From the IMG/VR virus record IMGVR_UViG_3300038393_001263, positions 9,616 to 73,615 of that record: a stretch of DNA of 64,000 bases, one strand, 5' to 3'. The notes under the pieces were generated by a model. The model had not been told where the DNA came from, searched no databases, and saw only the letters and a program-made list of their open reading frames with translations. Of this stretch, positions 5,697 to 23,080 are shown piece after piece; positions within the stretch are counted from its first letter, which is position 1; each line of letters begins with the position of its first letter. The translations under genes were made by a program, and so were the position numbers. Origin of the DNA: a virus. Its lineage: Duplodnaviria; Caudoviricetes.

Positions 5697-6458
5697 ATGA
5701 CGCTGAACCACTACCAGCGACTCTTCCTGCACTACTACCTCGGCGACGCCAACGGCGACGAGGTCAAGGCCGCCGAGATGGCGGGCTATGGGCGCCCCGC
5801 GTTGATGGGGCCTCGGCTGCTCAAGAGCCGGTCGGTCTGCGCCGAACTCGCGAAGAAACTCGACGACGCCGGCGCGATGTCGAGCACCGAAATCCTCGCC
5901 AGGCTGTCGGCCATCGCCTCGCTGGACGTGATGGAGTTCGTCGAGTTCAAGACCGAGAAGAACCGCGCCGGCGAGGACGTCGAGAAGCCGTTCGTCAACC
6001 TCAAGAAGATCAAGAAGCTCAAGAAGGGCGGCTTGATCAAGGATCTCAAGATCCGCCCGAGCGGCGAGATCGAGATCAACCTCCACAACGCCGTGGACGC
6101 GATGGACAAACTGGCCAAGTACCACGGCCTGTTCAAAGAGCGGATCGAGATCGAGCATATTGGCGGTGGCATCGGGAATGACCGAATCATTGCAATCATT
6201 GGCGGGTTCGCTCAACTCGCGGGAGCGGTTGGCCCTGGAGCGGCATATCGCGAACCAGAGCCCGGCGGGCTACGCGGTGGTGGCGAGCAATGGGAAGTGG
6301 ATGCCCGCCCCGCACTTGAGGTTGATCAACCAACTCCTGCTGTGGATCGACCAGAGGGCGGTGGATCGCCTTGTGATCACCCTCGGCCCGAGGCACGGGA
6401 AATCCGAGCTGATCTCGAAATACTTCCCGGCATGGACGATCGGCCGGAAGCCGAATGA
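5697..6458 (+). CDS. terS: terminase small subunit
   Basis: N-terminal HTH (YQRLFLHYYL...KAAEMAGY), EILARLSAIA, EINLHNAVDAMDKLAKYHGLF; directly before TerL. Confidence 0.8.
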   Translation: MTLNHYQRLFLHYYLGDANGDEVKAAEMAGYGRPALMGPRLLKSRSVCAELAKKLDDAGAMSSTEILARLSAIASLDVMEFVEFKTEKNRAGEDVEKPFVNLKKIKKLKKGGLIKDLKIRPSGEIEINLHNAVDAMDKLAKYHGLFKERIEIEHIGGGIGNDRIIAIIGGFAQLAGAVGPGAAYREPEPGGLRGGGEQWEVDARPALEVDQPTPAVDRPEGGGSPCDHPRPEAREIRADLEILPGMDDRPEAE

Positions 6459-7023
6459 CCGCTACATCCTCGCCAGTTACGAGTCCGATTTCGCCGCCGA
6501 GTGGGGCCGCAAGGTCCGTGACCTGATCGACGACAACGGCCAGCGTTTGTTCGGCGTCAAGCTTCGCCAGGACAGCAAGGCGGCCGACCACTGGATGGTC
6601 GAAGGCGCGGTCGGCGGCATGCAGACATGCGGCGTCGGGGGAGCCTTGACTGGAAAAGGCGCAGACATATTAGCCATCGATGATCCATTTAAGAGCATCG
6701 ACGAGGCGAACAGCGAGACGATCCGGTCCAAGAAGATGGACTGGTTCCGCACCGCCGCCTACACGCGTCTTGAACCGACCGGCGCGATCATCATGGTCGC
6801 GACGCGGTGGCACGAGGAAGACATCACCGGCACCGTTCTCGAAGAGATGAAGGACGGCGGCGACCAGTGGACCTACCTCCATCTTCCTTCGCTGCACGAG
6901 GGCAAGGAGGTCTGGGCCGAACTGACGATCCCCGGCGAGCACGCCGAGCGGATCAAGGCTCACGAGGGGATGACGTTCAAGCAACTCAATACCTTCCTTG
7001 AGCACTGCCAGGCTGCGGCATGA
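6178..7023 (+). CDS. terL: terminase large subunit, N-terminal ATPase part
   Basis: Walker A LGPRHGKS, Walker B ILAIDDP, coupling motif ATRWHEED. Confidence 0.9.
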   Translation: MTESLQSLAGSLNSRERLALERHIANQSPAGYAVVASNGKWMPAPHLRLINQLLLWIDQRAVDRLVITLGPRHGKSELISKYFPAWTIGRKPNDRYILASYESDFAAEWGRKVRDLIDDNGQRLFGVKLRQDSKAADHWMVEGAVGGMQTCGVGGALTGKGADILAIDDPFKSIDEANSETIRSKKMDWFRTAAYTRLEPTGAIIMVATRWHEEDITGTVLEEMKDGGDQWTYLHLPSLHEGKEVWAELTIPGEHAERIKAHEGMTFKQLNTFLEHCQAAA

Positions 7024-7916
7024 GCGTCGAAATCGAAGACGACGACATCGAGACGCTGAAGCCTGTTAAGATCCGCATCAAGGTCCATGACGACGGGCCG
7101 GCGCTGTGGCCCGAGCGATTCTCGGCCAGGAAACTTCGCCAGACGGCGAAGACGATCGGGTCGTATTTCTTCGCGGCGCTCTACCAGGGTTCACCTTCGC
7201 CCGAAGGCGGCGGCCGGTTCAAGCGTTCGTGGTTCAAATACTACAAACTCCAGAACGGCTATCTCCGTCTCGACGGACGCTCTTTCCAGTTGGCCCACTG
7301 CCGAATATTCGGCTGCGTCGACCTCGCATTCGCGCTAAAGAAGGATTCGGACTACACGGTGATCGGTGCGTTCGCCGTCACCCCCGATTGCGACCTCGTC
7401 CTGCTCGATCTTCATCGTGAACGCATGACCGGAGACCAACTGGTCCCCGCGTGCCGGGCGATGGAGACGAAGTGGGGTTTCGTCTATATCGGGATCGAGG
7501 ACGTTCAGGCCCAAACGCTCGTCGTCCAGACGGCCCGAAAGCAAGGGCTTGTGGTCCGACCGCTCAAGGCCAACATGGACAAGGGCGAGCGGGCTATACC
7601 GTTGCAAATCTACATGGAAGCCGGCCAGGTTTGGTTTCCGTCGTCGCATCCCGAACTCGCCAACCTCGAACACGAACTCCTCACGTTTCCGCAGGGCGCG
7701 AAGGACGACACGGTCGACGTGCTCGCCTATGCCGGGCTCCAGATGCAGAAGTACGGCGCGGCCGCCATTCCACCTGAAGAACGAGCCCGCCTCGAACGCG
7801 AACGCCTCGAACGCGAGTGGCAGGCCAAGGTCGAACGCGACAAGGCCGCGCAAGCCGACTACGAACACCCCCGATGGTGGCAAGACGCATGGAGCGGAGA
7901 CGAGCATGACGATTAG
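7020..7916 (+). CDS. terL: terminase large subunit, C-terminal lid plus RNase H-like nuclease part
   Basis: ALWPERF...ALYQGSP lid segment; acidic motifs VDLAF, IEDVQ, DDTVD; ATGA overlap with the N-terminal part. Confidence 0.9.
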   Translation: MSVEIEDDDIETLKPVKIRIKVHDDGPALWPERFSARKLRQTAKTIGSYFFAALYQGSPSPEGGGRFKRSWFKYYKLQNGYLRLDGRSFQLAHCRIFGCVDLAFALKKDSDYTVIGAFAVTPDCDLVLLDLHRERMTGDQLVPACRAMETKWGFVYIGIEDVQAQTLVVQTARKQGLVVRPLKANMDKGERAIPLQIYMEAGQVWFPSSHPELANLEHELLTFPQGAKDDTVDVLAYAGLQMQKYGAAAIPPEERARLERERLEREWQAKVERDKAAQADYEHPRWWQDAWSGDEHDD

Positions 7917-7947: not shown

Positions 7948-9193
7948 CGAGTTCTCTCTATGGGCGCGGGGTTGTTTTCGGCATAGGAAAAACCGTGGCG
8001 ACGTACACATACAAGTTCCGGATATCACCCAACGCCGATCAAGCCTCTCGGCTGTCCCGGAATTTCGGCGCATGCCGGTTTGTGTACAACTACTTTCTCG
8101 CCAAGAGACAACAGGTATACCGAGAGAACGGGAAGGGGTCAACGTATTACAAAGACTGTGCCGACCTCACCCAATTGAAGAAAGAACTGCCGTGGATCAA
8201 GGACGCAAATTCCCAGTCCTTGCAGAAGGAGTTGAGGAACCTTGACACCGCCTATAGTCAGTTCTTCAAGAAGAAGGCCCGCTTTCCCAAATTCCACTCC
8301 AAGCACAAGGACAAGCAATCTTTCCATGTTCCCCAAGGAACACGGTTGAAGAACGGGCGGTTGTATATCCCGAAGTTTAAAGAGGGTATTCGGCTCAAGC
8401 AACACCGCCCTATCGATGGCGAGATCAGGCATGCGACGGTCATCCGGAACCGATCTGGCCAGCACTTTGTCTGCATCTGTGTTGAGCGGGATTTGCCGAA
8501 ATTCGAGACGAACTCCAACATGGTTGGCGTCGATCTCGGCTTGAAGGACTTGGCGACGTGTAGCGACGGCGAGGTCTTTGAGAACATCCGACCCTATCGC
8601 AACCTGCACCGCCGTCTCCGCCGACTACAGAAGTCGGTCAGTAGAAAGGTCAAGGGGTCGCACAGCTATATCAGAGCCAAGCAGTTGGTGGCTAAGTGCC
8701 ACCAGAAGATCGCCGACATCCGGAACAACCATCTCCATCGGGTCAGCAAGTCACTGGTCAACGAGAATCAAGTGATCGTGCTTGAAGACCTCCATGTCAA
8801 GGGGATGATGGCAAATCGGAGGTTGGCTAAGTCGGTGGCGGACGTGTCATTTCATGAATTGGCGAGACAGATCGAGTACAAGGCGGGGTGGTATGGGCGG
8901 GAAGTGATCCGGGTGGACCGCTGGTATCCTTCGTCCAAGACCTGTCATGCGTGCGGATTCATCAATGAAGGATTGACGTTAGAAGACAGGGAATGGACAT
9001 GCCCGATTTGCAAGAAAGAACATGATCGAGACTTCAACGCCTCGATGAATATCCTTGCCGAAGGCATGCGCCAACGAAGCACAACCGTGGGAACCACGGG
9101 GGTAGCGTGTGGAGAGGGTATTAGACTTCCATCGGGAAGCTGCTCTCGTCGAAGCACAGAAGCCGCTGGATATTTAGCCCAGCGATAGTTCAC
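7924..9193 (+). mobile_element. tnpB-only (IS1341-like) element; left end uncertain, no tnpA in the window
   Basis: right end GAAGCC...TTTAG...AGTTCAC ending at 9193; lower GC than flanks; candidate target motif TTGAC at 7919-7923. Confidence 0.65.
7995..9188 (+). CDS. tnpB: IS200/IS605-family RNA-guided nuclease TnpB
   Basis: N-terminal YKFRISP HTH; RuvC D (VGVDLG), E (IVLEDL), D (HDRDFNA); CxxC...CxxC zinc finger. Confidence 0.95.
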   Translation: MATYTYKFRISPNADQASRLSRNFGACRFVYNYFLAKRQQVYRENGKGSTYYKDCADLTQLKKELPWIKDANSQSLQKELRNLDTAYSQFFKKKARFPKFHSKHKDKQSFHVPQGTRLKNGRLYIPKFKEGIRLKQHRPIDGEIRHATVIRNRSGQHFVCICVERDLPKFETNSNMVGVDLGLKDLATCSDGEVFENIRPYRNLHRRLRRLQKSVSRKVKGSHSYIRAKQLVAKCHQKIADIRNNHLHRVSKSLVNENQVIVLEDLHVKGMMANRRLAKSVADVSFHELARQIEYKAGWYGREVIRVDRWYPSSKTCHACGFINEGLTLEDREWTCPICKKEHDRDFNASMNILAEGMRQRSTTVGTTGVACGEGIRLPSGSCSRRSTEAAGYLAQR

Positions 9194-11168: not shown

Positions 11169-12809
11169 TTGCCCACCCTCAGCGAGCGAATCGACGGAGC
11201 CCTCTCGGCGTACGGGTTCGAGCGTAAAAGCTCGCCCGGACCTGCGGGGGGATACTCCTTCGGCACCACGTTCGTCGGCGGCCCGAACTACACCGACGCG
11301 TGGAAGTCGAAGCGAGCCCCGTCGCCGGCCGAACTGGTCGAGCACTTCAAGTCGCTCGTCTTCTCGTGCGTCATCACGAACGCCGACGCCGTTAGTTCGG
11401 TGCCGCTCAAACTCTACATGAACGTCTCCGACGGCCGCAAGCCGAAGGACGGACTGGGGTCGCAGGAGATCACCAAGCGGCAGGTCGAGCATCTTCGCTC
11501 CACGCAGTACGTCGGAGGCTCGGCGGGCGTCTCGGACATCAGGGAGGTCCGCGACCATCCCTTCCTCATGGCGCTGGACCAGCCCGATCCGCAGGGCATC
11601 CTCAGCCGCACGCAACTTCTCAAACTGATATCGATGTACTGCGACACGGTCGGCGTCGCGTACGTCCAGCCCGAAGGCCGCGTCAGTGCCCCGTACCGCT
11701 GGCTGTGGATCCTCGCCAGCCAGTACATGCTGCCGGTGTTCGACGGCTCCAGTCCGATCCCGTCGTCGTACAACTACGGCAGCCGGAACTTCAAACCCGA
11801 AGAACTGATCTGCTTCCGAACCAGCCTCAGCCTCAAGAACTCCTACGGGTCGAACTACTCGCCGCTCTACGCGGCCGTCGAGTACGCCAAGCTCGAAGAC
11901 AAGTTCGTCTCGATCCAGGAACAGTTGATGGCGCAGGGGCCGCGTCCCAACCTTTTGGTGACGCCGTCGAACCCCGACCTGCCGCCCGGCCAGGACGAGA
12001 AACTTCGGTTCGAGCAAGACCTGAACCGGAAGCACGCTCGCGGCGCGCAGGGCGGCGTGATCGTCGCCAACGGCGCCTGGGACGTGAAGCCGATCACGTA
12101 CAGTCCGACCGACCTGACCGGCCTGAAGATCGCCGAGTACGACCTGGAGCGGATCTGCGCGTGCTTCGGCGTGCCGATCACGCTGTTCCTCAGCGAGACG
12201 AACCTCGCCAACCTCCAGGCGGCCGAGAAACTTCACGCCGTCCGCGCCGTCAATCCCCGCTGCAAGGCGATCGCCGACCGCCTGACGCAAGTCGTCCGCC
12301 AGTGGGATCGACGCCTGTTCTTCGCGTTCGACAACGCGGTGGCCGCCGACCGCGAGTTGGAGGCGAAGCTTTTCGACATGGAGATCAAGAACGGCTCCAC
12401 GACGATCAACCAGGCGAACCAGGAGACCGGGAAGCCGCCCGTGCCGTGGGGCGACGAGCCGTGGTTCCAGAACACGATGGCCCAGCCGTCGGCGATCAAG
12501 GAATTGAACCAAGCTACTATTACGGCAAGCACCCTCGCTGCGGTAGGATCGAAGGAAGGCGGCGGCAGTGCGGCCGTCGGCAACAAGGACGCGAAGAAAG
12601 CCAAGGGCGGCTCGCAGAAGGGCGGCTCCGATGCTAAGCGGAATCTTGAGCCTGGCTATCCCGATCTTCCTGGCGTTGTTCGTAGCCTTCACGATCAAGC
12701 CGATGAGGCGGTTCTTGCAGTCGAAGGATTGACGCTGGAGGGTGAGGATGGCGACCCTTTCGCCTTCCTGGCCTGGGACGAGGAAAGCCGCTCGGCGGCG
12801 AACGGCTGA
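11169..12809 (+). CDS. phage portal protein (HK97-type)
   Basis: VFSCVITNADAVSSVPLKLY, ERICACFGVPITLF, TINQANQETGKPPVPWGDEP. Confidence 0.9.
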   Translation: MPTLSERIDGALSAYGFERKSSPGPAGGYSFGTTFVGGPNYTDAWKSKRAPSPAELVEHFKSLVFSCVITNADAVSSVPLKLYMNVSDGRKPKDGLGSQEITKRQVEHLRSTQYVGGSAGVSDIREVRDHPFLMALDQPDPQGILSRTQLLKLISMYCDTVGVAYVQPEGRVSAPYRWLWILASQYMLPVFDGSSPIPSSYNYGSRNFKPEELICFRTSLSLKNSYGSNYSPLYAAVEYAKLEDKFVSIQEQLMAQGPRPNLLVTPSNPDLPPGQDEKLRFEQDLNRKHARGAQGGVIVANGAWDVKPITYSPTDLTGLKIAEYDLERICACFGVPITLFLSETNLANLQAAEKLHAVRAVNPRCKAIADRLTQVVRQWDRRLFFAFDNAVAADRELEAKLFDMEIKNGSTTINQANQETGKPPVPWGDEPWFQNTMAQPSAIKELNQATITASTLAAVGSKEGGGSAAVGNKDAKKAKGGSQKGGSDAKRNLEPGYPDLPGVVRSLHDQADEAVLAVEGLTLEGEDGDPFAFLAWDEESRSAANG

Positions 12810-13579
12810 TCGCCAAGCCGGCGTCGGCCGAGGCGATCCTCGCCCACGTCCTCAAGAAACTCGGATGGACCTCGCGCTACAAGAAGGGATCGCTCGATGA
12901 GCATGAGCGTCTTCGCCTCCTCGCAGCGATTCGCGCTTTTTCAAAAGCGTGGATCCGACATGAGGCTGAACAGTGGGCGCGGCAGCAACTCGACTGGCAA
13001 GAGAAGCGGAGTCTTCTCGGCGCAGCCGAAGTTGAGCAAGTTGGGCGGTCTCTACGTGAACAAGCGGAGCGGTTCTTCCGGCGGATGAAAGGGTTCGTCC
13101 GCGAGTCGATCGTCGCGGGCGTCATGGGTCTGCTCGGCCCGCGTCCGATGACCGGCGAAGAACTCCAGCACGCCGAACGCCTCGCGACCGTCCAGGACGC
13201 GTACCTCGATCGCTTCAAGGCCGACCTGCTTCGTCCCCAGCCGTTCCCGCCCGACAAGACCTACCAAATCTTCATCGGCCCCGCGCCGATCACCGCCAAT
13301 CAGTTCATCGCCCGCGCGGAGTCCTACGGCGCGACCGTCTGGGGCGACGCGCAGGAGATCGCCCGAGCGTCCTACGCTCGCGAAGGCGTGTTCGACGAGG
13401 AACGGCTGGTTCTCGGCGACGCGGAACACTGCCAAGGCTGTATCGACGACAATGCTCGCGGCTTCGTCCCCATTGGAACGCTGGCTCCGATCGGGTCGCG
13501 CGAGTGCAGGCAAAATTGCCGGTGTCATTTCAGCTACCGCAGACGTCCGATCAACACGGTTTTTCAGGCGACGCCATGA
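12746..13579 (+). CDS. minor head protein (MuF/SPP1 gp7-like); frame open from 12746, first ATG only at 13085
   Basis: C-terminal HCQGC...ECRQNCRC motif; coding-like sequence continues upstream to the in-frame TGA at 12743-12745. Confidence 0.65.
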   Translation, partial: GWRPFRLPGLGRGKPLGGERLIAKPASAEAILAHVLKKLGWTSRYKKGSLDEHERLRLLAAIRAFSKAWIRHEAEQWARQQLDWQEKRSLLGAAEVEQVGRSLREQAERFFRRMKGFVRESIVAGVMGLLGPRPMTGEELQHAERLATVQDAYLDRFKADLLRPQPFPPDKTYQIFIGPAPITANQFIARAESYGATVWGDAQEIARASYAREGVFDEERLVLGDAEHCQGCIDDNARGFVPIGTLAPIGSRECRQNCRCHFSYRRRPINTVFQATP

Positions 13580-13817: not shown

Positions 13818-14372
13818 ATGCCGATCTCGTGGAATCCGACGAGTTGGATCGACCGGCTCGTCGAGCAACGGATGCACGTCGCCGGCCAATCAATGGTCGC
13901 GATGGCCAAGGCGTTGGTTCCCGTCGACACCGGATTGCTCAAGTCGAAGATTTACTACACCTACGCGCCCGCCACCAAGACGCTGACGCTGCACGCGGAT
14001 ACCGGCTACAGCCTCTTCGTGGAGCAGGGCACGCATAAAATGGCGCCACGGCCTTATCTAAGGCCAGCCATCAACGCCTTCGCCCCCGCCTTCCTGACCG
14101 GGAAGTTCACGGGCGTCTCCACCCAGATCATGGGCGGGACGTTCAACGACGAATTCCACGTCCCGCTCAAGATCCAATCCAAGATTCGCCCCCATATCGC
14201 CGCCGCGAACGCCATGCACAACGTCGGCGCGGTCGCGAGGACGAAGTTGACCGCCGTCCATATGACCCGCGACAACGAGCCGCGACGTCACAACGTCGGA
14301 CTCCAGCAGAAGAACAAGGTCATCCTTTCGAGCCTGTCCAAGCTCAACCGCATGCGCAAGGCATGGAATTAA
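13818..14372 (+). CDS. HK97 gp10-like neck/tail-completion protein
   Basis: AKALVPVDTGLLKSKI...YSLFVEQGTHKMAPRPYLRPA. Confidence 0.85.
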   Translation: MPISWNPTSWIDRLVEQRMHVAGQSMVAMAKALVPVDTGLLKSKIYYTYAPATKTLTLHADTGYSLFVEQGTHKMAPRPYLRPAINAFAPAFLTGKFTGVSTQIMGGTFNDEFHVPLKIQSKIRPHIAAANAMHNVGAVARTKLTAVHMTRDNEPRRHNVGLQQKNKVILSSLSKLNRMRKAWN

Positions 14373-14663: not shown

Positions 14664-15635
14664 ATGGATCATCTACGCCGGTCGTTCGCCGCCACGATGG
14701 ACGACGCCAATCCTGCGGAACGAACCATCGTCGCGAAGATCAGCGTCGGGGACGTCGATCGGCATCGCACGCTCATCGACTCCAGGGGCATCGACCTGAC
14801 GAACTTCCGTCAGAACCCCGTGGTCCTGTTCGAGCACGGGCTCGACCCGACGCGCGGCGCCGTCCCGATCGGACGCTGCCTCTGGGTTCGCCACGACGGA
14901 AGCGGGAACGGCCGGCTGATCGCCAAGACCCAGTTTTCCCGCGATGCCTTTTCGCAGACCCTATTCGACTTCTACCGCGACGGCACGATGCGGGGCTGGT
15001 CGATCCAGGGCGGGCGAAAGGACGCGAGCCCGCCGACGCGGGAGGAGATCCGCAGGCGTCCCGAACTGGCCGACTGCGAACTGATCTACAGATCAATCGA
15101 TCTATACGAGTACTCGGCCGTGTCAGTGCCGAGCTGCGCCTCGGCCTTGTCGGACCCCGAACTCCGCTCCCTCTCGAAACTCGTCGTTCGCGGCTTCTGG
15201 TCCCCGAGCGAGGAAGTCAAGCCGTTGATCGACAGCCTGTGCGTCGAAGTCGACCCGGAAACGGAAGAGGCCCCCGCCGACGAGACGCCCGCCGAGGAAG
15301 TCGCGACCGACGCCGAAGTGGCCCGCGACGCGCCGACCGAAGACGTGGTCGAAGCCGTTGTCGAGACCGATCCGGAAACGGCCGAGCCAGTCGTCGAAGA
15401 GACGGTCGAGCGTTCGGCGCCGGAAGCGGAACCGATCGCGGAAGCCTCGCCCGAACCCGAGAAGGAAGTCGAGCCGGAACCCGTCGTCGAGCCCGCGAAG
15501 CCCGAACTGCCGCCGCTCGTCGGCCGGACACTGGAAGAGGTCGTGAAGTCCGCCGTCGATCCGATCGGCGCATTCGAGCGGGCGTTCGCGGAGAAGATGA
15601 AGGATCTCCAGGGCTGGCTTCGCGGCGAAGCTTGA
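14664..15635 (+). CDS. prohead maturation protease (HK97-type) with acidic C-terminal extension
   Basis: NPVVLFEHG (His), RGWSIQG (Ser), LYEYSAVSVPS; E/P-rich tail. Confidence 0.85.
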   Translation: MDHLRRSFAATMDDANPAERTIVAKISVGDVDRHRTLIDSRGIDLTNFRQNPVVLFEHGLDPTRGAVPIGRCLWVRHDGSGNGRLIAKTQFSRDAFSQTLFDFYRDGTMRGWSIQGGRKDASPPTREEIRRRPELADCELIYRSIDLYEYSAVSVPSCASALSDPELRSLSKLVVRGFWSPSEEVKPLIDSLCVEVDPETEEAPADETPAEEVATDAEVARDAPTEDVVEAVVETDPETAEPVVEETVERSAPEAEPIAEASPEPEKEVEPEPVVEPAKPELPPLVGRTLEEVVKSAVDPIGAFERAFAEKMKDLQGWLRGEA

Positions 15636-15680
15636 TCAGTCGGCGTCATCACGTTCTTTGAAAATCCGAGGCATCGCACC

Positions 15681-16751
15681 ATGTCAACCGCACCGAGCGG
15701 AATCGACGCCGCCGTCCGCCTGTTCGGCGACATCAGCCGGTCCATCGTCGACCGGGACGCGCCGGAAGCCGTCCGTCGCGGCTGGAACACCTACGGCGGC
15801 GGCCCCAACGGCGGGTTCCTGCTCGACACGGATTTGATCGGCGGGATCTTCGACAAGGCCCGCGCGATCGACGGACCGCTGGCGCGATGCCTGCTCCTGC
15901 CGACCACGAAGCATACCGCCGAGTGGCCGGTGTTCGACGAGACCAGCCGCGCGAACGGATCGCGGCTCGGCGGCATCAAGGGCCGCTGGCAGGGGACGAC
16001 CGACGACCAGTCGATGACGCCCTACGCCAGCCAGCCGTCGGTCGCGATGAACCAGTTCGTCCCCAAGCGGTTCACGATCCTCTCGCAGCCGTACTCGCGC
16101 GACCTGCTCGAAGACGCCCCGATCGCCGAGGCCGCCCTCGAATACGCGGCCAGACAGGAAGTCCGCTACGAGATCGTCAACGCGATGATCAACGGGCAGG
16201 GCGCCACCCACCCCTACGGCGTGCTCAACTCGCCCTCCACGATCGCCGTCTCCCGCGCCACGCCGAGCACGATCAGCCAGGCCGACGTCGACAACGCGTG
16301 GTCCCGCATGTGGGGCTTCAGCCGCCGCAACGCGGTCTGGCTGGCGAACGACGACACGCTGCTCAAGATCGACGCGGTCGCGACGACGCTCGGCTGGCCC
16401 GCCGCCACCTATCTCCCGCAGGGCGTCGCCGGAAACCCCTATCCCTTGCTCAAGGGACGGCCGCTGCTCCCCTGCGAGCAATGCGCGGTCCTCGGGTCGA
16501 CCGGCGATTTGATCCTCGGCGACTGGAGCCAGTACGCCCTGGTCGTCCGCACGGTCGACGACGAGGCGACGCTCTCCTATGCGTCGCCCGAAGCCTTCAT
16601 CGAGAAGCGTTCGGCCGACCAGTTCATGTTCGACACGGATTCCATCGTCTTCCGGTTCAAGATCCGGATCGACGGCATGCCGCTCTGGAAGAAGCCGATC
16701 ACCATCGCGGACGGTTCCCAGACCGCTTCGCCCTTCGTCGTCATCGCCTGA
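15681..16751 (+). CDS. HK97-fold major capsid protein paralog 1 (no delta domain)
   Basis: GGFLL, SRDLLED, INGQG...PYGVLN, GDLILGDWSQY, FRFKIRIDG. Confidence 0.9.
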   Translation: MSTAPSGIDAAVRLFGDISRSIVDRDAPEAVRRGWNTYGGGPNGGFLLDTDLIGGIFDKARAIDGPLARCLLLPTTKHTAEWPVFDETSRANGSRLGGIKGRWQGTTDDQSMTPYASQPSVAMNQFVPKRFTILSQPYSRDLLEDAPIAEAALEYAARQEVRYEIVNAMINGQGATHPYGVLNSPSTIAVSRATPSTISQADVDNAWSRMWGFSRRNAVWLANDDTLLKIDAVATTLGWPAATYLPQGVAGNPYPLLKGRPLLPCEQCAVLGSTGDLILGDWSQYALVVRTVDDEATLSYASPEAFIEKRSADQFMFDTDSIVFRFKIRIDGMPLWKKPITIADGSQTASPFVVIA

Positions 16752-16914
16752 CGACGCATTTCCCACACGCTCCCCGCGTGCCCTTCGGTGCGAGTAATCA
16801 GGTCTCCCGGTTCGACCCTCCTTCGAGGTGCGGCGGACGTCAGGCGGGCTGGAGATTCACCGCGCTCATGTCCCACCCTTCCCACGTCCCACCTCCATCG
16901 AGGGTTCCCCGCCC

Positions 16915-18378
16915 ATGTTTATCAAGCTGAAGTCCGACGCTGGCGGCCACAAGGCCGGCGCGGTCATCGAAATCCCGGATGAGGCCGTCGCTCGCGGCTA
17001 CATCGCATCCGGTCTCGCCGAAGAGTCGGACCAGAGCGGCCTCGTCGCCAGCCTGGTCGAAGCCCGACTCGGCGCGATCAACGAGAGCGTCGCCAGCACG
17101 CTCGACGAGTTCAAGCGGACGTTCCTCGACAAGACCCCCAGCAACGGCCCCCCGGCCGCGCCGGACAAGGGCGTCGAGTTCGACGGCGAGATCGAAGGGA
17201 CCGAGTCGCCCTCCGATCGCGGGGTCGACGGCAAGAACGTCTCTCGCGGCCTCGGCGAGATCCTGCAACTGATCGCCCGGACCAGCATCCACCAGCCCCA
17301 GGCCGATCGCGAGCACGCCGACGAACGGCTCGTCCGGCACTTCGAGTTGCCGAAGGTCAAGAACTCGGAAGGCGTGGTCTCCCGAACCGGCACCGAGTCG
17401 ATGAGCGGAGGCGCGACCTACGGCTACTTCATCAAGCCGGAAATCCTGAGCGGGTACTTCGAGATCGCGATGGAAGACTCGCTGATCGAGCCGTACGCGT
17501 TCAACGTCCCGGTCGGAACGACCAACGAGGTGAACTGGCCGGCCCTCGACCAGTATTTCACCCCGACCGCCGGGCAGTCGGCGGCGACGGCCGGCGTCCA
17601 GGTCTATCGCAAGAGCGAGATCCGCCAGCGGCAGGCGTCCGACGCCAAACTGCGGAACATCACGCTCAAGATCAACGACCTGACCGCATTCACGAGCGTT
17701 TCCCGCGACCTCGTGGCCGACAACTACATCGCGATCACGACCCTGCTGCCGAGCCTCTTCATGAAGGCCATGGCCTTCACGAAGGACTACGAGTTCCTGA
17801 ACGCCCAGGGCGGCGACCGCCCGATCGGGCTCCGCAACAGCGCGGCCCTGCTGACCGTCAATCGTGGAACGGCGAGCCACATCTACTTCCCGGACCTGCT
17901 CAAGATGCTCAGCATCTTCGACCAGAGCCGGCTCAAGAGCGCGATGTGGATCGCCCACCAGTCGACCTACACCGAACTGGCCGCGATCAAGGATTCGTCC
18001 GGAACTTTCGCGTTCCAGCCGAACGCCCTCATCACCCAGGCCGCGATGTTCTCCGCGATCAGCGGGACGAAGTCGGGCGGGATGAACTTCGCCGCGCAGG
18101 GAACCCTGCACGGCCTGCCGATCCGGTTCACCAGCGACAAGCTGGAAATCCTCGGCACGGCGGGCGACCTGATGCTGATCGACCCCAGCCAGTACGGCGT
18201 CGCCAACCGCTCGGGGATCGAGGTCGGCGTCAGCGATCAGTTCCTCTTCGACCAGGACCAGCTTTGCTACAAGTGGAAGCTCCGCAACGACGGGCAGTCG
18301 CTCTGGTCCGGTCCTCGCCTGTCGACGACCCCGGCCGGCGGCCTGTTCAAGACCTCGCCGTTCGTCACCCTCGTCTGA
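16915..18378 (+). CDS. HK97-fold major capsid protein paralog 2 (long N-terminal extension)
   Basis: GYFIKPE, SRDLVAD, PIGLRN, GDLMLIDPSQY, YKWKLRNDG; about 165-aa N-terminal region. Confidence 0.9.
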   Translation: MFIKLKSDAGGHKAGAVIEIPDEAVARGYIASGLAEESDQSGLVASLVEARLGAINESVASTLDEFKRTFLDKTPSNGPPAAPDKGVEFDGEIEGTESPSDRGVDGKNVSRGLGEILQLIARTSIHQPQADREHADERLVRHFELPKVKNSEGVVSRTGTESMSGGATYGYFIKPEILSGYFEIAMEDSLIEPYAFNVPVGTTNEVNWPALDQYFTPTAGQSAATAGVQVYRKSEIRQRQASDAKLRNITLKINDLTAFTSVSRDLVADNYIAITTLLPSLFMKAMAFTKDYEFLNAQGGDRPIGLRNSAALLTVNRGTASHIYFPDLLKMLSIFDQSRLKSAMWIAHQSTYTELAAIKDSSGTFAFQPNALITQAAMFSAISGTKSGGMNFAAQGTLHGLPIRFTSDKLEILGTAGDLMLIDPSQYGVANRSGIEVGVSDQFLFDQDQLCYKWKLRNDGQSLWSGPRLSTTPAGGLFKTSPFVTLV

Positions 18379-18403
18379 TCACTCATCCCGGAGGTTTACC
18401 CTA

Positions 18404-18862
18404 ATGTTCGCATCTCGCAAGTTCCGGGACGTGTTCAGCGAGCTGAACGCCGGACTCTCGCCCGCCGTCTATGCGGCCGGCTCCTCGATCGGCTCGGCCA
18501 TCCCCATGACCGGCCGAAGCAAGATCGCCTTCCACCTGGACATGGGTTCGGGCGGGGCGGCCTCGGTCCAGATGTTGATCTACGCCGCGCCGACCTCGGC
18601 CGGCACCGGGTCGATTCTCGTCGGCTCGACCGGGCTGGCGTACGCCTCGGCGACGTCGGCCTCGGGCGGAACCTACGTCACGGAAGTCCGGGGCGAATAC
18701 CTCGGCGACCGTAGCGCGGGCACGTGGGTCTTCCCGGTCCTGTCAGTGTCGGGTGCTTCGGTCGTCGCCGCCGTCCACGCCAATGGTTTCGTTGAGCGTT
18801 ACACCCCGGCGTACAACCAGGACACGCCCGCCTACGTCAAAGGCGAAACCTTGCTATATTGA
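18404..18862 (+). CDS. probable head decoration protein
   Basis: A/G/S-rich beta protein directly after the capsid genes. Confidence 0.5.
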   Translation: MFASRKFRDVFSELNAGLSPAVYAAGSSIGSAIPMTGRSKIAFHLDMGSGGAASVQMLIYAAPTSAGTGSILVGSTGLAYASATSASGGTYVTEVRGEYLGDRSAGTWVFPVLSVSGASVVAAVHANGFVERYTPAYNQDTPAYVKGETLLY

Positions 18863-18887
18863 TTAGCTTCCATCATTAGTTTACAAT
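18859..18887 (+). promoter_or_regulatory. sigma70-like promoter of the HNH-AP2 gene
   Basis: TTGATT-17 nt-TACAAT; downstream GGTGCCAGG...CCTGGCACC hairpin. Confidence 0.6.
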
Positions 18888-18980
18888 GATGGTTGTCAAT
18901 GAAATGCCGAAGCTGATCCCTTCGGTTTAGGTGCCAGGTCGAGTGGTCGGCCTGGCACCGCCCTTACCACTGAGGAAGAT

Positions 18981-19640
18981 ATGGCCCTGTTGCCGCTCTA
19001 CCGCAGGATTGGAACTATTTCCAACCGGTACGCCAAATTCCCAGAAGACTACGAAATAGCCGGGCATTCCCAGATCGACGACGACGCAGCCGAACTCGAA
19101 GAGATCCAAAAAAGAAGATGGCTTCTTGCCGAAGCCAAAGGCGTCAGCGTCAAGTACGGACGATCGTTTGAGCGCATAGATGGCAAGTATAAGTCCGTGT
19201 TGCTTCATAGGCTTGTGTGGACTCTGCGTCGGGGTTTGATTCCTCGAAACATGGTGATCGATCACATCAATCACGACGGTCTTGACAACAGAATTGCCAA
19301 TCTGCGGGTCGTCACCCAGGCCGACAACAGCAAGCATTGCCGCCTCCAGTCGAACAGCAAATCCGGGTACATCGGCGTTGATTCGGCAAAGCACCGCTCG
19401 CACCTGTATAACTGCCATTCGGCCTACATTTGTCCCAACGCCAAAAAGAAATCCCTTGGATGTTACCCGACTCCGCAGGAGGCTGCGGTCGCCCGAGACA
19501 TCGCCGCGTCAATCCTCTATGCCGAATTCTTCGTATCCAACGACATCCCCAAAACGGAAGTCTCGGTGGAGCGGCGAGAGGAAATACGCATGGTCGTCGA
19601 GAAGCATCTGAGAAGGCACTCGCTGATCGCATCGTCCTGA
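18981..19640 (+). CDS. free-standing HNH endonuclease with AP2 domain
   Basis: IDHINHDGLDNRIANLRVVT; SGYIGV...LGCYPTPQEAAVARD. Confidence 0.85.
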   Translation: MALLPLYRRIGTISNRYAKFPEDYEIAGHSQIDDDAAELEEIQKRRWLLAEAKGVSVKYGRSFERIDGKYKSVLLHRLVWTLRRGLIPRNMVIDHINHDGLDNRIANLRVVTQADNSKHCRLQSNSKSGYIGVDSAKHRSHLYNCHSAYICPNAKKKSLGCYPTPQEAAVARDIAASILYAEFFVSNDIPKTEVSVERREEIRMVVEKHLRRHSLIASS

Positions 19641-19671: not shown

Positions 19672-20637
19672 ATGCATCCGAAGCTCACGGTCGGCGTCCC
19701 GCACCTGGACCGCACCGAATTCCTCGGCAAGACGATCGACTGCCTGCTGAATCAGGTGGTCCCCTGCAAGATCCTCGTCGCGGACCAGGGCAAGACCGAC
19801 GCCACGTTCGAGCTGATGCAGACCTACAAGGACAATCCGCTCGTCTCCCACGTTCCCACCGAGGCCACGTGCCTCTGGGAGAACTGGCAGGCCGCCGCCG
19901 ACTCCGCGATGGAGGACGGGGCCGAATACTTCGCGTGGTGCCAGGACGACGACATCGTCCACCCGCGCTATTCCGAGCGGATCGTCGCCGCCTTCGACAC
20001 CTTCCCTGACGCCTCGACGTGGACGGCCGTCCTGTCGATCGCCGAATACGAACACCTGGCCATGTGGTGGACCGGCGTCGGGCCTCCGATCCCGATGGAT
20101 CTGCTCCGCAATCGGCCTACCGTCATTGACGGGATGATGCTCGTCCCCTTCTCGTACTGCTCCAGTTGGGCCTTGTCGCCGGCCGCCGCGTTCCGTTGCG
20201 GCGAGGGTTTCAGGGAAGCCCTCCGCGAAGTGCCGACGCACTGCGACCTGTACACCGAGCGGACGATCCTCGCGGCGATGGGCCGCAAGGGCAAGGTCGT
20301 GTGCGACCCCGTCCGCATCGGCTACTGGCGACACCACGGCAAGAACGAATCCTACCGCCAGAACCTCGTCGAGAGGCCCCGGCAGCAGGAAGCGTTCCTC
20401 GAATACACCGACCGGCTGATGGACGACCTGCCGAACTGGCGCGACCAGTTCGAGGAATGGGCGAAGATCATGCCGAACCCGAGTCTTCGCGGCTACCTGG
20501 CGAGCATGGAAGGCTTGGAGTCGAGATACATCTACGCGGTGGCCGATTGCCTTACGCGATCGATGCGAGAAGAACGGCTATACGACGATCTCAGGGCCGA
20601 GATGTTTCCGGAGCTGGACGCTCCTCTGGTGGTTTAG
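19672..20637 (+). CDS. glycosyltransferase family 2 (GT-A)
   Basis: LTVGVPHLDR...ILVADQG...FAWCQDDD. Confidence 0.85.
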   Translation: MHPKLTVGVPHLDRTEFLGKTIDCLLNQVVPCKILVADQGKTDATFELMQTYKDNPLVSHVPTEATCLWENWQAAADSAMEDGAEYFAWCQDDDIVHPRYSERIVAAFDTFPDASTWTAVLSIAEYEHLAMWWTGVGPPIPMDLLRNRPTVIDGMMLVPFSYCSSWALSPAAAFRCGEGFREALREVPTHCDLYTERTILAAMGRKGKVVCDPVRIGYWRHHGKNESYRQNLVERPRQQEAFLEYTDRLMDDLPNWRDQFEEWAKIMPNPSLRGYLASMEGLESRYIYAVADCLTRSMREERLYDDLRAEMFPELDAPLVV

Positions 20638-21089: not shown

Positions 21090-21318
21090 TCTTCTGCTCC
21101 CACAAGACACACCCGAAGTCGCGTTTGCACACCAAGTCCGACCGTTCTCTGCTGATCGTGTAGACGATACGGTCAAAAAAATCATCAAACGGCTCGTGTT
21201 CCATGACGTCGTATTGATCTATATTGCCGATCCGCTTACAGAAACCCCAAGTGGCCGGCGGCTGATAGTCTTCGTTCTTGGTCTCGTAGTGTTTGCACGT
21301 CCCGCATAACTTCTCCAT
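21082..21318 (-). CDS. small Cys-rich protein, paralog 1
   Basis: CGTC...GFC...DFGCVLWE; TGATG-coupled to the upstream methyltransferase-GT gene. Confidence 0.7.
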   Translation of the reverse strand: MEKLCGTCKHYETKNEDYQPPATWGFCKRIGNIDQYDVMEHEPFDDFFDRIVYTISRERSDLVCKRDFGCVLWEQKND

Positions 21319-22997
21319 CACTTTCCCACCTCCTTCAACTCGGGCAGCCTCTCGAACAACTGACTCTCCAGTTCCGCCTTCTCGTCCAGCAACTTGTTGA
21401 ACCAGTCGGCCCGATTGCGGTAGTGGCCGGCGAGCATGCGGTTGTTGACGATGTTCGTATAGGCCGACTCGGCGGTGCCGCTGCGGACATGGTGATCCAA
21501 AGCATAGCGGATCATCATCTCGGGGTGTCCCGTTCCCAAATTGAGTACGGTGCGATCCCCGAGAATCCACGGGTCGCGGTCGTTTCTTAGCACCGCCACG
21601 CCCTCTGCCCCGCACTCGATCTGAGTGATGTCGCTCTTGCACCGATTGAGCCGCGTGTCGCCAAGGGCCAAAATCGCCACGTCGCACGTTCTTAGCAACG
21701 CCCGGTATTTCTCGTAGGGCTGGAACGCATAGAACGTCTTATGCTTCGTCTCAAGGGCGTCGTAGAGATCCCGGTCATGAACGACGACGAAGTGGCACCG
21801 ATCGGGGCGTCCGGCGACAACCTCGTTGACGATCTTGACGACGTCCCCCCAGTCCTCACGCTTCCGTTGCCCTCCCATATAGATGCGGACGACGTCGGAT
21901 TCGACGTACTCTCGTTTTGGTCCGATGGCCTTGATCTGATTCGGGAACACCGCGACATTCGGGTTGATCGGACGGACGAGTTCGGCGATCGCCTCGGTGC
22001 TGACGCTGATCGCGTGGCAAGCCTTCAACGCCCATTCGACGCTCGGAACCTTGAGCTTGCTTCGGAACCCTTCGTACCACGGGTCGTCGTCCCACTCGCC
22101 GACGATGAGGCAGCCGTCCTTCAGATGCTTTCGCACGGCTTCCTCTGCGATATTGAAGCGTTGGCGTACAACGACTACGGCTTCCCCCGGCTCGACCTCT
22201 GTCGGGACTTCCGAATAACGGAATCCGGGAATGGTCGCGAGGAATTGACCGGGTTCGGTGAGACGCGGGCGGGCGCAGCAGGCTTCGGCGGTGAAGCCAC
22301 GAATGAGGATGCGTCGGGAAACTGGATCCGCCTTGAACCCGTGAATGATCCACTGGTACGCCTGGCACCCCTCGCGGAACTTCGCGACGTCGGGAGCAAG
22401 GCCGAACTGCTTGACCGCGTCGATCAAGACCGAGCCGCCTGGGTCCAGATTACGCGGGACGATCTTGGCGACGCTTAGGCCAGCCGCCTCGAACATGTCG
22501 ATCAGCGACTTCTTCGTGAACCAGCGGAGATGAGTCCGGTCGAAAGTCCCGGAGTCCATCAGAGGCCATTCGCCGTGCAGCAGCGCGGTGATCGCCCGCC
22601 AGTGCTGGATGTTCGGCACGCAGGCGACGATGGAACCGCCGTCGGCCAAATAGTTGTCGACGCAGGCTTTCAGGACCGCGTGTGGATCTCGCAAGTGTTC
22701 TAGGACATCGCCAAACGCCAAGGCGTCGAATCGCTCGTCATCGTCGCAGCCGTATTCGTCGAGAAACCGTTCGATCGGCAGCGAGTAGACCGACGACAAT
22801 CGGCCGCTCTTTTCAGCCTCGGTCGCCGCCTCATAGTTCGCCTCGACCCCGATGTAATGGCACTTCGGATTGATGAGGCGATACCTCGCCGCCAGCGCCC
22901 CGGTTCCGCATCCGACCTCCAGAACGCGTTTCGCGTCGGGCGGCAGCATGGCGAGAAGGTCGAAATTCACGTTGTTGTAATAGTCGGGGACGGCCAT
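21318..22997 (-). CDS. class I SAM methyltransferase fused to a GT-B-like glycosyltransferase
   Basis: VLEVGCGTG, FGDVLEHLRDP, HLRWFT; C-terminal ISVSTEAIA...VFPN and NRCKSDITQIE. Confidence 0.8.
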   Translation of the reverse strand: MAVPDYYNNVNFDLLAMLPPDAKRVLEVGCGTGALAARYRLINPKCHYIGVEANYEAATEAEKSGRLSSVYSLPIERFLDEYGCDDDERFDALAFGDVLEHLRDPHAVLKACVDNYLADGGSIVACVPNIQHWRAITALLHGEWPLMDSGTFDRTHLRWFTKKSLIDMFEAAGLSVAKIVPRNLDPGGSVLIDAVKQFGLAPDVAKFREGCQAYQWIIHGFKADPVSRRILIRGFTAEACCARPRLTEPGQFLATIPGFRYSEVPTEVEPGEAVVVVRQRFNIAEEAVRKHLKDGCLIVGEWDDDPWYEGFRSKLKVPSVEWALKACHAISVSTEAIAELVRPINPNVAVFPNQIKAIGPKREYVESDVVRIYMGGQRKREDWGDVVKIVNEVVAGRPDRCHFVVVHDRDLYDALETKHKTFYAFQPYEKYRALLRTCDVAILALGDTRLNRCKSDITQIECGAEGVAVLRNDRDPWILGDRTVLNLGTGHPEMMIRYALDHHVRSGTAESAYTNIVNNRMLAGHYRNRADWFNKLLDEKAELESQLFERLPELKEVGK

Positions 22998-23080
22998 TTT
23001 TTCCTCGCTCTGTTGACGGCTGAAAGACACGGCCAACAACAATATCAAACGGCAATGATTTTTGCAAGTGGAGCCGCCTC

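Follow-up and report, generated by a model that had tools for sequence, protein, structure and literature searches.

Two adjacent capsid genes of the HK97 fold, MCP1 and MCP2 (for major capsid protein), lie in the head-assembly module of a tailed virus (Duplodnaviria; Caudoviricetes) represented by IMG/VR record IMGVR_UViG_3300038393_001263. Here, analysing a 64,000-nucleotide stretch of this genome (hereafter the window; bases 9616-73615 of the 73.6-kb record, for which CheckV estimates a completeness of 78%), we show that both genes are intact, that MCP1 is foreign to the lineage and was gained a single time, that the pair has long been retained and that a conserved RNA structure lies in the 5′ leader of MCP2. 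By analogy with solved two-protein shells, we propose with moderate confidence that MCP1 fills the pentons of the head and MCP2 the hexons.

Outside the T4 group, a single protein is generally taken to serve for both pentons and hexons in nearly all tailed phages. Shells of two capsid proteins are a known kind of system, exemplified by T4, by the Ccm protein of the satellite SaPIbov5 and by the siphophage Jabs, and are rare among tailed phages; the literature on long-tailed phages with two capsid proteins yielded nothing beyond these three. The present lineage is an independent case, which adds a dated single gain, a foreign origin, sister clades with a single MCP and a conserved leader RNA. 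The contrast with the sister clades makes it testable what a dedicated penton protein adds to a shell, be it stability, size control or assembly fidelity, and how a subunit of outside origin comes to fit a lattice already in place. Among the deposited genomes of cultured phages that were searched no close relative was found, the best matches being at most 32% identical and carrying one capsid gene per record.

Two complete capsid genes of the HK97 fold

MCP1 (15681..16751, + strand; 356 aa) and MCP2 (16915..18378, + strand; 487 aa) both match PF05065 (Phage_capsid; cut-off 24.2 bits), at 86.9 bits (E 2e-24) over residues 44-342 of MCP1 and at 85.9 bits (E 4e-24) over residues 199-490 of MCP2 in a 516-aa reading; a scan of the whole record recovers both matches again. 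The original prediction had described two full-length open reading frames (ORFs) of this fold, strongly diverged outside four shared blocks, and the translations bear this out: SRDLLED/SRDLVAD, GDLILGDWSQY/GDLMLIDPSQY, DQFMFDTD/DQFLFDQD and SPFVVIA/SPFVTLV are all present, and BLASTP aligns the two proteins across the whole fold at 26% identity (355 columns, E 2e-20). Both match phrog_10 and phrog_617, and MCP2 also phrog_2263 and phrog_15928, all of them major head protein families that we judge not to be T4 capsid families. Pfam at E ≤0.01 gives solely PF05065 for both proteins, which places neither in the T4 gp23/gp24 sequence family; the resemblance to T4 discussed below is functional and not one of sequence-family membership.

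AlphaFold2 models of MCP1 and MCP2 have predicted local distance difference test scores of 81.6 and 77.9, respectively, and are confident in the fold. Foldseek places HK97-fold capsids at the top of the matches for both models (E 1e-10 to 1e-17, probability 1.00), and the Protein Data Bank (PDB) capsids matched by both include those of RcGTA (6tb9), Mycofy1 (9lw6), HK97 (1ohg), T5 and a capsid-forming phage-inducible chromosomal island (cf-PICI). Sequence profile searches recover these PDB-matched relatives for both proteins, the match to HK97 gp5 being weak by sequence. Complete N-arm, E-loop, P and A elements are present in both models, and the mature parts are similar in size.

The two proteins differ ahead of the fold, as the original prediction had pointed out. 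In its model MCP1 has about 35-45 poorly ordered residues there, and no scaffold (delta) leader, whereas MCP2 has about 150-175, its fold beginning near residue 176. The modelled MCP2 leader consists of a small confident domain (residues 1-37), a long helix (40-72), helices at 113-141 and a disordered link, an architecture that identifies it, at the level of the prediction, as a delta-like scaffold leader. The MCP2 start is placed at ATG 16915. A GTG at 16828 was ruled out as the start, as homology among relatives begins at the ATG; the stretch 5′ of the ATG is a conserved non-coding leader with insertions and deletions that are not multiples of three, and gene call P0121 of the protein collection (487 aa) is identical to MCP2 from ATG 16915.

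The pair is conserved and both genes are under selection

Relatives were collected by searching viral contigs with each protein and with an alignment of the MCP2 family, followed by tblastn of all fetched loci. An intact MCP1 lies directly 5′ of MCP2 in every locus in which MCP2 is at least 43% identical to that of the window (L003; L004, in which the contig ends inside MCP2; L005/L029; L016/L025; L017/L026; L018/L028; L027; and the 119-kb L103), and both copies are intact and co-linear in 8/8 non-redundant paired loci. Ten contigs, matched by length, are common to the MCP1 and MCP2 families of the protein collection. MCP1 is full length and free of stops and frameshifts throughout the paired loci, as it is in some 30 protein clusters.

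Across paired relatives MCP1 is 74/62/61/46/44% and MCP2 62/58/55/47/47% identical to the window's proteins, ranges so alike that the two appear to diverge at similar rates. Crude Nei–Gojobori ratios of non-synonymous to synonymous substitution rates (dN/dS), which are rough given the high divergence, the GC-rich genome and the strong codon bias, are 0.23-0.61 for MCP1 and 0.36-0.76 for MCP2. Judged by these comparisons, MCP1 is not the relaxed copy. Together, the intact pair and an MCP1 dN/dS no higher than that of MCP2 support a functional two-protein arrangement. Of the checks named in the original prediction, selection thus gave no sign of relaxation, and co-occurrence showed the pair in every relative down to the 43% limit, with MCP1 missing only in more distant ones (MCP2 ≤41%); that absence reflects a later gain, as set out below, and is no argument against function.

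One paired relative, contig JARLIC010000137.1 (119,133 bp; L103, L108-L113), carries both capsid genes and is syntenic with 1.9-63.8 kb of the window (62 kb) at protein identities of 24-78%, most above 35%. Since its ends overlap exactly by 141 bp, the k-mer size of the assembler, we read it as a complete circular assembly. It sits in a metagenome-assembled genome bin of Candidatus Paceibacterota, an assignment that is likely to be wrong. T5 has a genome of about 122 kb and a head with triangulation number (T) 13, and that likeness in genome size makes it plausible that the 119-kb relative has a large head, at around T=12-13.

MCP1 as a capsid gene gained from another lineage

The relatives with a single MCP (L019-L021 and L030-L045) are 30-41% identical to the window in MCP2 and 34-46% in portal, and have the same gene order (portal, MuF, gp10-like, protease, MCP2, orf152) with a single capsid gene. 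In five single-MCP records PF05065 matches exactly once in the whole record, and three of the five have direct terminal repeats, at 39-45 kb. The lone MCP2 orthologues of these relatives indicate that MCP2 can build a whole shell alone and that MCP1 is an add-on; gene comparison accordingly identifies MCP2 as the capsid protein that the lineage originally used by itself.

In trees computed with FastTree and with IQ-TREE (LG+G4), the MCP2 proteins of paired loci fall into one starred clade, which lies within the single-copy MCP2 proteins, so that parsimony favours a single gain of MCP1. MCP1 itself nests among lone, single-copy HK97 capsid genes and MCP2 is sister to a different set, with several starred branches and intervening single-copy capsid genes separating the two families. 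Forcing the families together costs 72 log-likelihood units and is rejected by the approximately unbiased (AU) test (p 0.007), read with the caveat that the constrained group was named after the tree was seen. The tandem duplication implied by the original prediction is contradicted by the tree, by the AU test and by the single-MCP relatives with the same gene order, and was ruled out as the origin of the pair. On the phylogenetic evidence, MCP1 is a horizontally acquired capsid homologue from another HK97 lineage, gained once and inserted 5′ of MCP2.

Three small chromosomal elements, L022, L023 and L024, contain the lone capsid genes nearest to MCP1 (38-48% identity). In L024 (389-14839), part of a 2.68-Mb bacterial contig, the capsid gene is accompanied by a split terminase, an integrase and a DUF3987 primase-like gene; in L023 (4629-10250) it is accompanied by proteases and, again, a split terminase. 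No portal was seen in either element region, and their lone MCP1-family capsids are 400-407 aa long. L023 and L024 look like satellites, and they are the closest lone MCP1 relatives. For their split terminases tblastn gave no match anywhere in the window at E ≤1e-3. L022 (7001-8210; ENA contig k141_56179, 78 kb) has a lone MCP1-like gene of 48% identity, followed directly by the MCP2-leader hairpin described below (54 bits) without an MCP2, and has replication-initiator and helix-turn-helix genes as neighbours on one flank, with bacterial genes (SBP_bac_10) on the opposite flank. That hairpin, and a gene resembling a tail-region gene of the window that also follows the MCP1-like gene, weaken the case for L022 as a satellite; it probably represents what deletion has left of a prophage with two capsid proteins, and not a donor. 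The neighbours of L022 hint at a planctomycete host.

A conserved RNA hairpin in the leader of MCP2

The spacer between MCP1 and MCP2 (163 nt) is better conserved than the capsid coding sequence, with 78-82% nucleotide column identity, the value being 78% over loci in which the capsid proteins are 54-74% identical. RNAalifold predicts in it a long imperfect hairpin (window 16788-16865), from which a covariance model, R1, was built with six sequences; the R1 feature occupies 16784..16869 (+ strand; about 85 nt). R1 matches once per locus, always ending about 45 nt 5′ of the MCP2 ATG, and once in the 119-kb genome. Matches were found in the paired loci (for example, L003 4260-4345, L016 5875-5960, L005 7893-7979 and L111 16488-16573 on the − strand) and, at falling scores, in single-MCP loci L030 (3448-3532), L045 (4874-4955), L037, L041 and L020.

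In the model-fitted alignment, both partners vary in 27/30 pairs and 89% of cells are paired, against 33-47% in slid controls, figures that are to be read knowing that fitting to a covariance model favours the structure; an independent MAFFT alignment already showed 11 compensated pairs. An Rfam scan of 15500-18900 returned one sub-threshold chance match, leaving the hairpin without an Rfam family, and no terminator, promoter or terminator-like U-run was found in the spacer, predicted sites lying elsewhere. As the hairpin is also present in single-MCP relatives, it is a feature of the ancestral capsid gene, and the insertion of MCP1 took place 5′ of it, between protease and hairpin. The hairpin may serve to process or stabilize the capsid mRNA and is a candidate for regulating the dosage of capsid proteins. 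In 6/6 genomes MCP2 is the member of the pair with the stronger codon bias, and that of MCP1 equals or exceeds the bias of portal and protease in most.

In L005 a 240-aa ORF resembling a GIY-YIG homing endonuclease (7068-7790, − strand; motif read by eye) lies between MCP1 and MCP2, 5′ of the hairpin.

Comparison with known two-protein shells

A phage pair close to the present one is that of Jabs, a siphophage of Mycobacterium abscessus, in which MCPh (ORF72) forms the hexons and MCPp (ORF73) the pentons of a T=9 shell, MCPp having no propeptide and MCPh losing 266 residues (bioRxiv 10.64898/2026.07.24.740622). Compared by description, the two HK97-fold genes are neighbours of low identity in both phages (26% here, 18% in Jabs) and stand in a head module of the non-T4, long-tailed type, and in both a long copy with a large N-terminal domain, which is absent from the mature Jabs shell, accompanies a short copy essentially without a propeptide. 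Jabs differs in its reversed gene order, in a penton protein of 257 aa with a reduced A domain (MCP1 being full-size) and in a disulfide-linked shell; moreover, occupancy was shown for Jabs and is here proposed. A hexon-only adaptation of MCP2 in the form of a clade-specific insertion, such as the Jabs turret, was looked for in the fold and none was found.

In T4, gp23 forms the hexamers and gp24 the pentameric vertices, with a propeptide of about 10 aa in gp24 and about 65 aa in gp23. The two are paralogues that go back to a duplication in the T4 lineage, where scaffolding is provided by a separate core. T4 and the window share two side-by-side HK97-fold shell genes, a prohead protease and, if MCP1 is the vertex protein, a short propeptide in that protein. 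They differ in that T4 belongs to another capsid family and has paralogous copies and a separate scaffold, in place of the foreign copy and the delta-like leader of MCP2 found here.

For the origin of MCP1 the closest match is Ccm of SaPIbov5, the delta domain of which has 87 aa compared with 128 aa in the capsid protein (CP) of the helper phi12 and which occurs exclusively in pentamers (PMC8569155). Like MCP1, Ccm is horizontally acquired and has the shorter leader, the resident CP forming hexamers. Ccm is encoded by a satellite and shrinks the head of its helper, whereas MCP1 is a phage gene, situated in the head operon of the phage itself and passed on vertically together with MCP2; the window is itself no satellite, since around the capsid pair it encodes morphogenesis genes (terminase, portal, protease, neck and tail-completion). 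MCP2 resembles gp5 of HK97, in which a protease gene is followed by a capsid gene with an N-terminal scaffold-like leader, a type that the single-MCP relatives L019-L021 and L030-L045 fit fully. HK97 differs in using one protein for pentons and hexons, whereas here a second, leaderless capsid gene stands between protease and MCP2. With two distinct genes under selection, one with a long leader and the other with a short one or none, the pair has the gene-level features of the two-protein HK97 shells with a dedicated penton protein, a class to which it probably belongs.

A proposed division between pentons and hexons

All three solved two-protein shells place the extra copy with a short leader or none in the pentons, and on this ground we propose MCP1 as the penton protein. 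MCP2, with its own delta-like scaffold domain, would form the hexons and the bulk of the shell, and MCP1, captured once, would fill eleven pentameric vertices by co-assembling on the lattice organized by the MCP2 delta domains; removal of the MCP2 leader by the protease would follow. The hairpin would uncouple expression of MCP2 from that of the upstream genes, for example as an mRNA processing or stabilizing site, so that MCP1, on the protease side, would fall in the low-copy part of the operon, and MCP2 in its high-copy part. Such a division fits an MCP2 that bears the scaffold, has the stronger codon bias and lies behind the hairpin, and an MCP1 that is a scaffold-free add-on. The original prediction had offered three options, namely a heteromeric capsid with penton and hexon specialization, two capsid sizes, and antigenic or defence-evasion variants. 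A functional arrangement of two proteins is supported, and penton and hexon specialization is, by analogy, the best supported of the three, the positions on the lattice being proposed on that analogy.

Several observations weigh against this division. MCP1 is not reduced in size and, in its model, lacks the reduced A domain of Jabs MCPp; the monomer model displays no hallmark that would single out a penton protein, MCP1 and MCP2 matching the same PDB capsids. The fold of MCP2 in the paired clade, compared with single-MCP orthologues, has no insertion or deletion of ≥3 columns, so that nothing indicates a lost ability to form pentons. The short copy comes first in the gene order, the reverse of T4 and Jabs. 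In the window the two genes are nearly equal in codon bias (effective number of codons 31.8 vs 31.3), and their ribosome-binding sites are alike, both of GAGG type. The single-sequence folding energy of the hairpin is unremarkable (z +0.73), its support being covariation.

A related reading, which we hold to be possible though doubtful, goes further and has the lineage domesticate a Ccm-type, satellite-like capsid gene as an obligatory subunit of vertices or geometry, with the leader RNA setting a ratio of about 1:10; were this true, the sister clades with one and two capsid proteins would be a natural experiment on penton specialization in HK97 shells. It is unlikely, to a slightly greater degree, that MCP1 acts as a determinant of capsid size or shape that, placed at vertices or elsewhere, biases assembly towards one triangulation number, giving a particular large head or two sizes. 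Ccm, itself an acquired capsid homologue, does redirect head shape through its occupancy of pentons (PMC8569155). The complete paired relative has 119 kb compared with 39-45 kb in the three single-MCP relatives with terminal repeats, and it is in small, integrated, satellite-like elements that MCP1 has its nearest lone relatives. Yet some single-MCP relatives are apparently large as well (L019 is on a 70-kb contig, and L033 and L036 have about 87-100 kb by CheckV estimates), which argues that large size does not need MCP1; a role in size would, moreover, overlap with a division between pentons and hexons and not exclude it.

Less likely again is a shell in which MCP1 and MCP2 mix within capsomers or in which MCP1 takes special positions, for instance in a ring around the portal. 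Such mixing would suit two full HK97 folds that the models give a similar mature size, and two genes of nearly equal codon bias in the window, but no example of a mixed HK97 capsomer was found, in each of the three solved two-protein shells the proteins sort by type of capsomer, and an identity of 26% together with descent from different lineages makes an intimate fit inside a capsomer less likely than a separate capsomer. That MCP1 stays out of the virion and serves in conflict, as a decoy or by poisoning the assembly of satellites or competing phages that have MCP1-type proteins, strikes us as distinctly improbable. The phage could meet such elements in its host, given that the lone genes closest to MCP1 occur in small integrated elements that carry a split terminase, an integrase and a primase-like gene; MCP1, however, occupies the core of the head operon in the interval between protease and MCP2, has been kept there across a clade diverged to 44% identity and has a codon bias that matches or exceeds that of portal and protease in most genomes. 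We know of no interference system of such a capsid-poisoning type. The idea of a redundant passenger gene on its way to loss draws on the relatives in which MCP2 orthologues build capsids alone, and is largely refuted: MCP1 is intact in all paired loci and in the roughly 30 protein clusters, its dN/dS is below 1 and not above that of MCP2, and the two diverge at about equal rates, which leaves this the most improbable reading of all.

The head module and its surroundings

The head-assembly module runs on the + strand in the order portal, MuF-like gene, gp10/tail-completion-like gene, protease, MCP1, MCP2 and a 152-aa gene. It begins with the portal protein (11169..12809; PF04860 E 1e-29, phrog_2662 E 1e-35), which is syntenic in all relatives, followed by the MuF-like gene (13085-13579) and the gp10/tail-completion-like gene (13818-14372). 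The prohead protease (14664..15635) matches the protease part of phrog_617, a family of protease–capsid fusions, at E 1.7e-6, with no match in a Pfam search at E 0.01. It is laid out as an N-terminal domain of about 190 aa, a long acidic linker rich in Pro and Glu and a C-terminal helical tail, and is 38-68% identical to the gene directly 5′ of the capsid gene or genes in paired and single-MCP relatives. Directly 3′ of MCP2 lies the conserved 152-aa gene (orf152; 18404..18862, + strand), found at the same position in paired and single-MCP relatives at 34-76% identity and without a match in Pfam and PHROG searches; its product is a candidate head decoration or accessory protein.

On its 3′ side the capsid block adjoins an HNH endonuclease gene (18981-19640, + strand; PF13392 E 2e-16), past which lie a GT2 glycosyltransferase gene (19672-20637) and a methyltransferase fusion on the minus strand (21318-23048). 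A glycosyltransferase also stands beside the capsid block in the single-MCP relatives L019-L021. Upstream of the module, the large terminase is apparently split between two adjacent genes (6160-7916, + strand; Terminase_6N in 6160-7023), and a TnpB / IS605 OrfB-type gene (7995-9188, + strand; PF01385, PF07282 and PF12323) lies between the terminase and portal regions.

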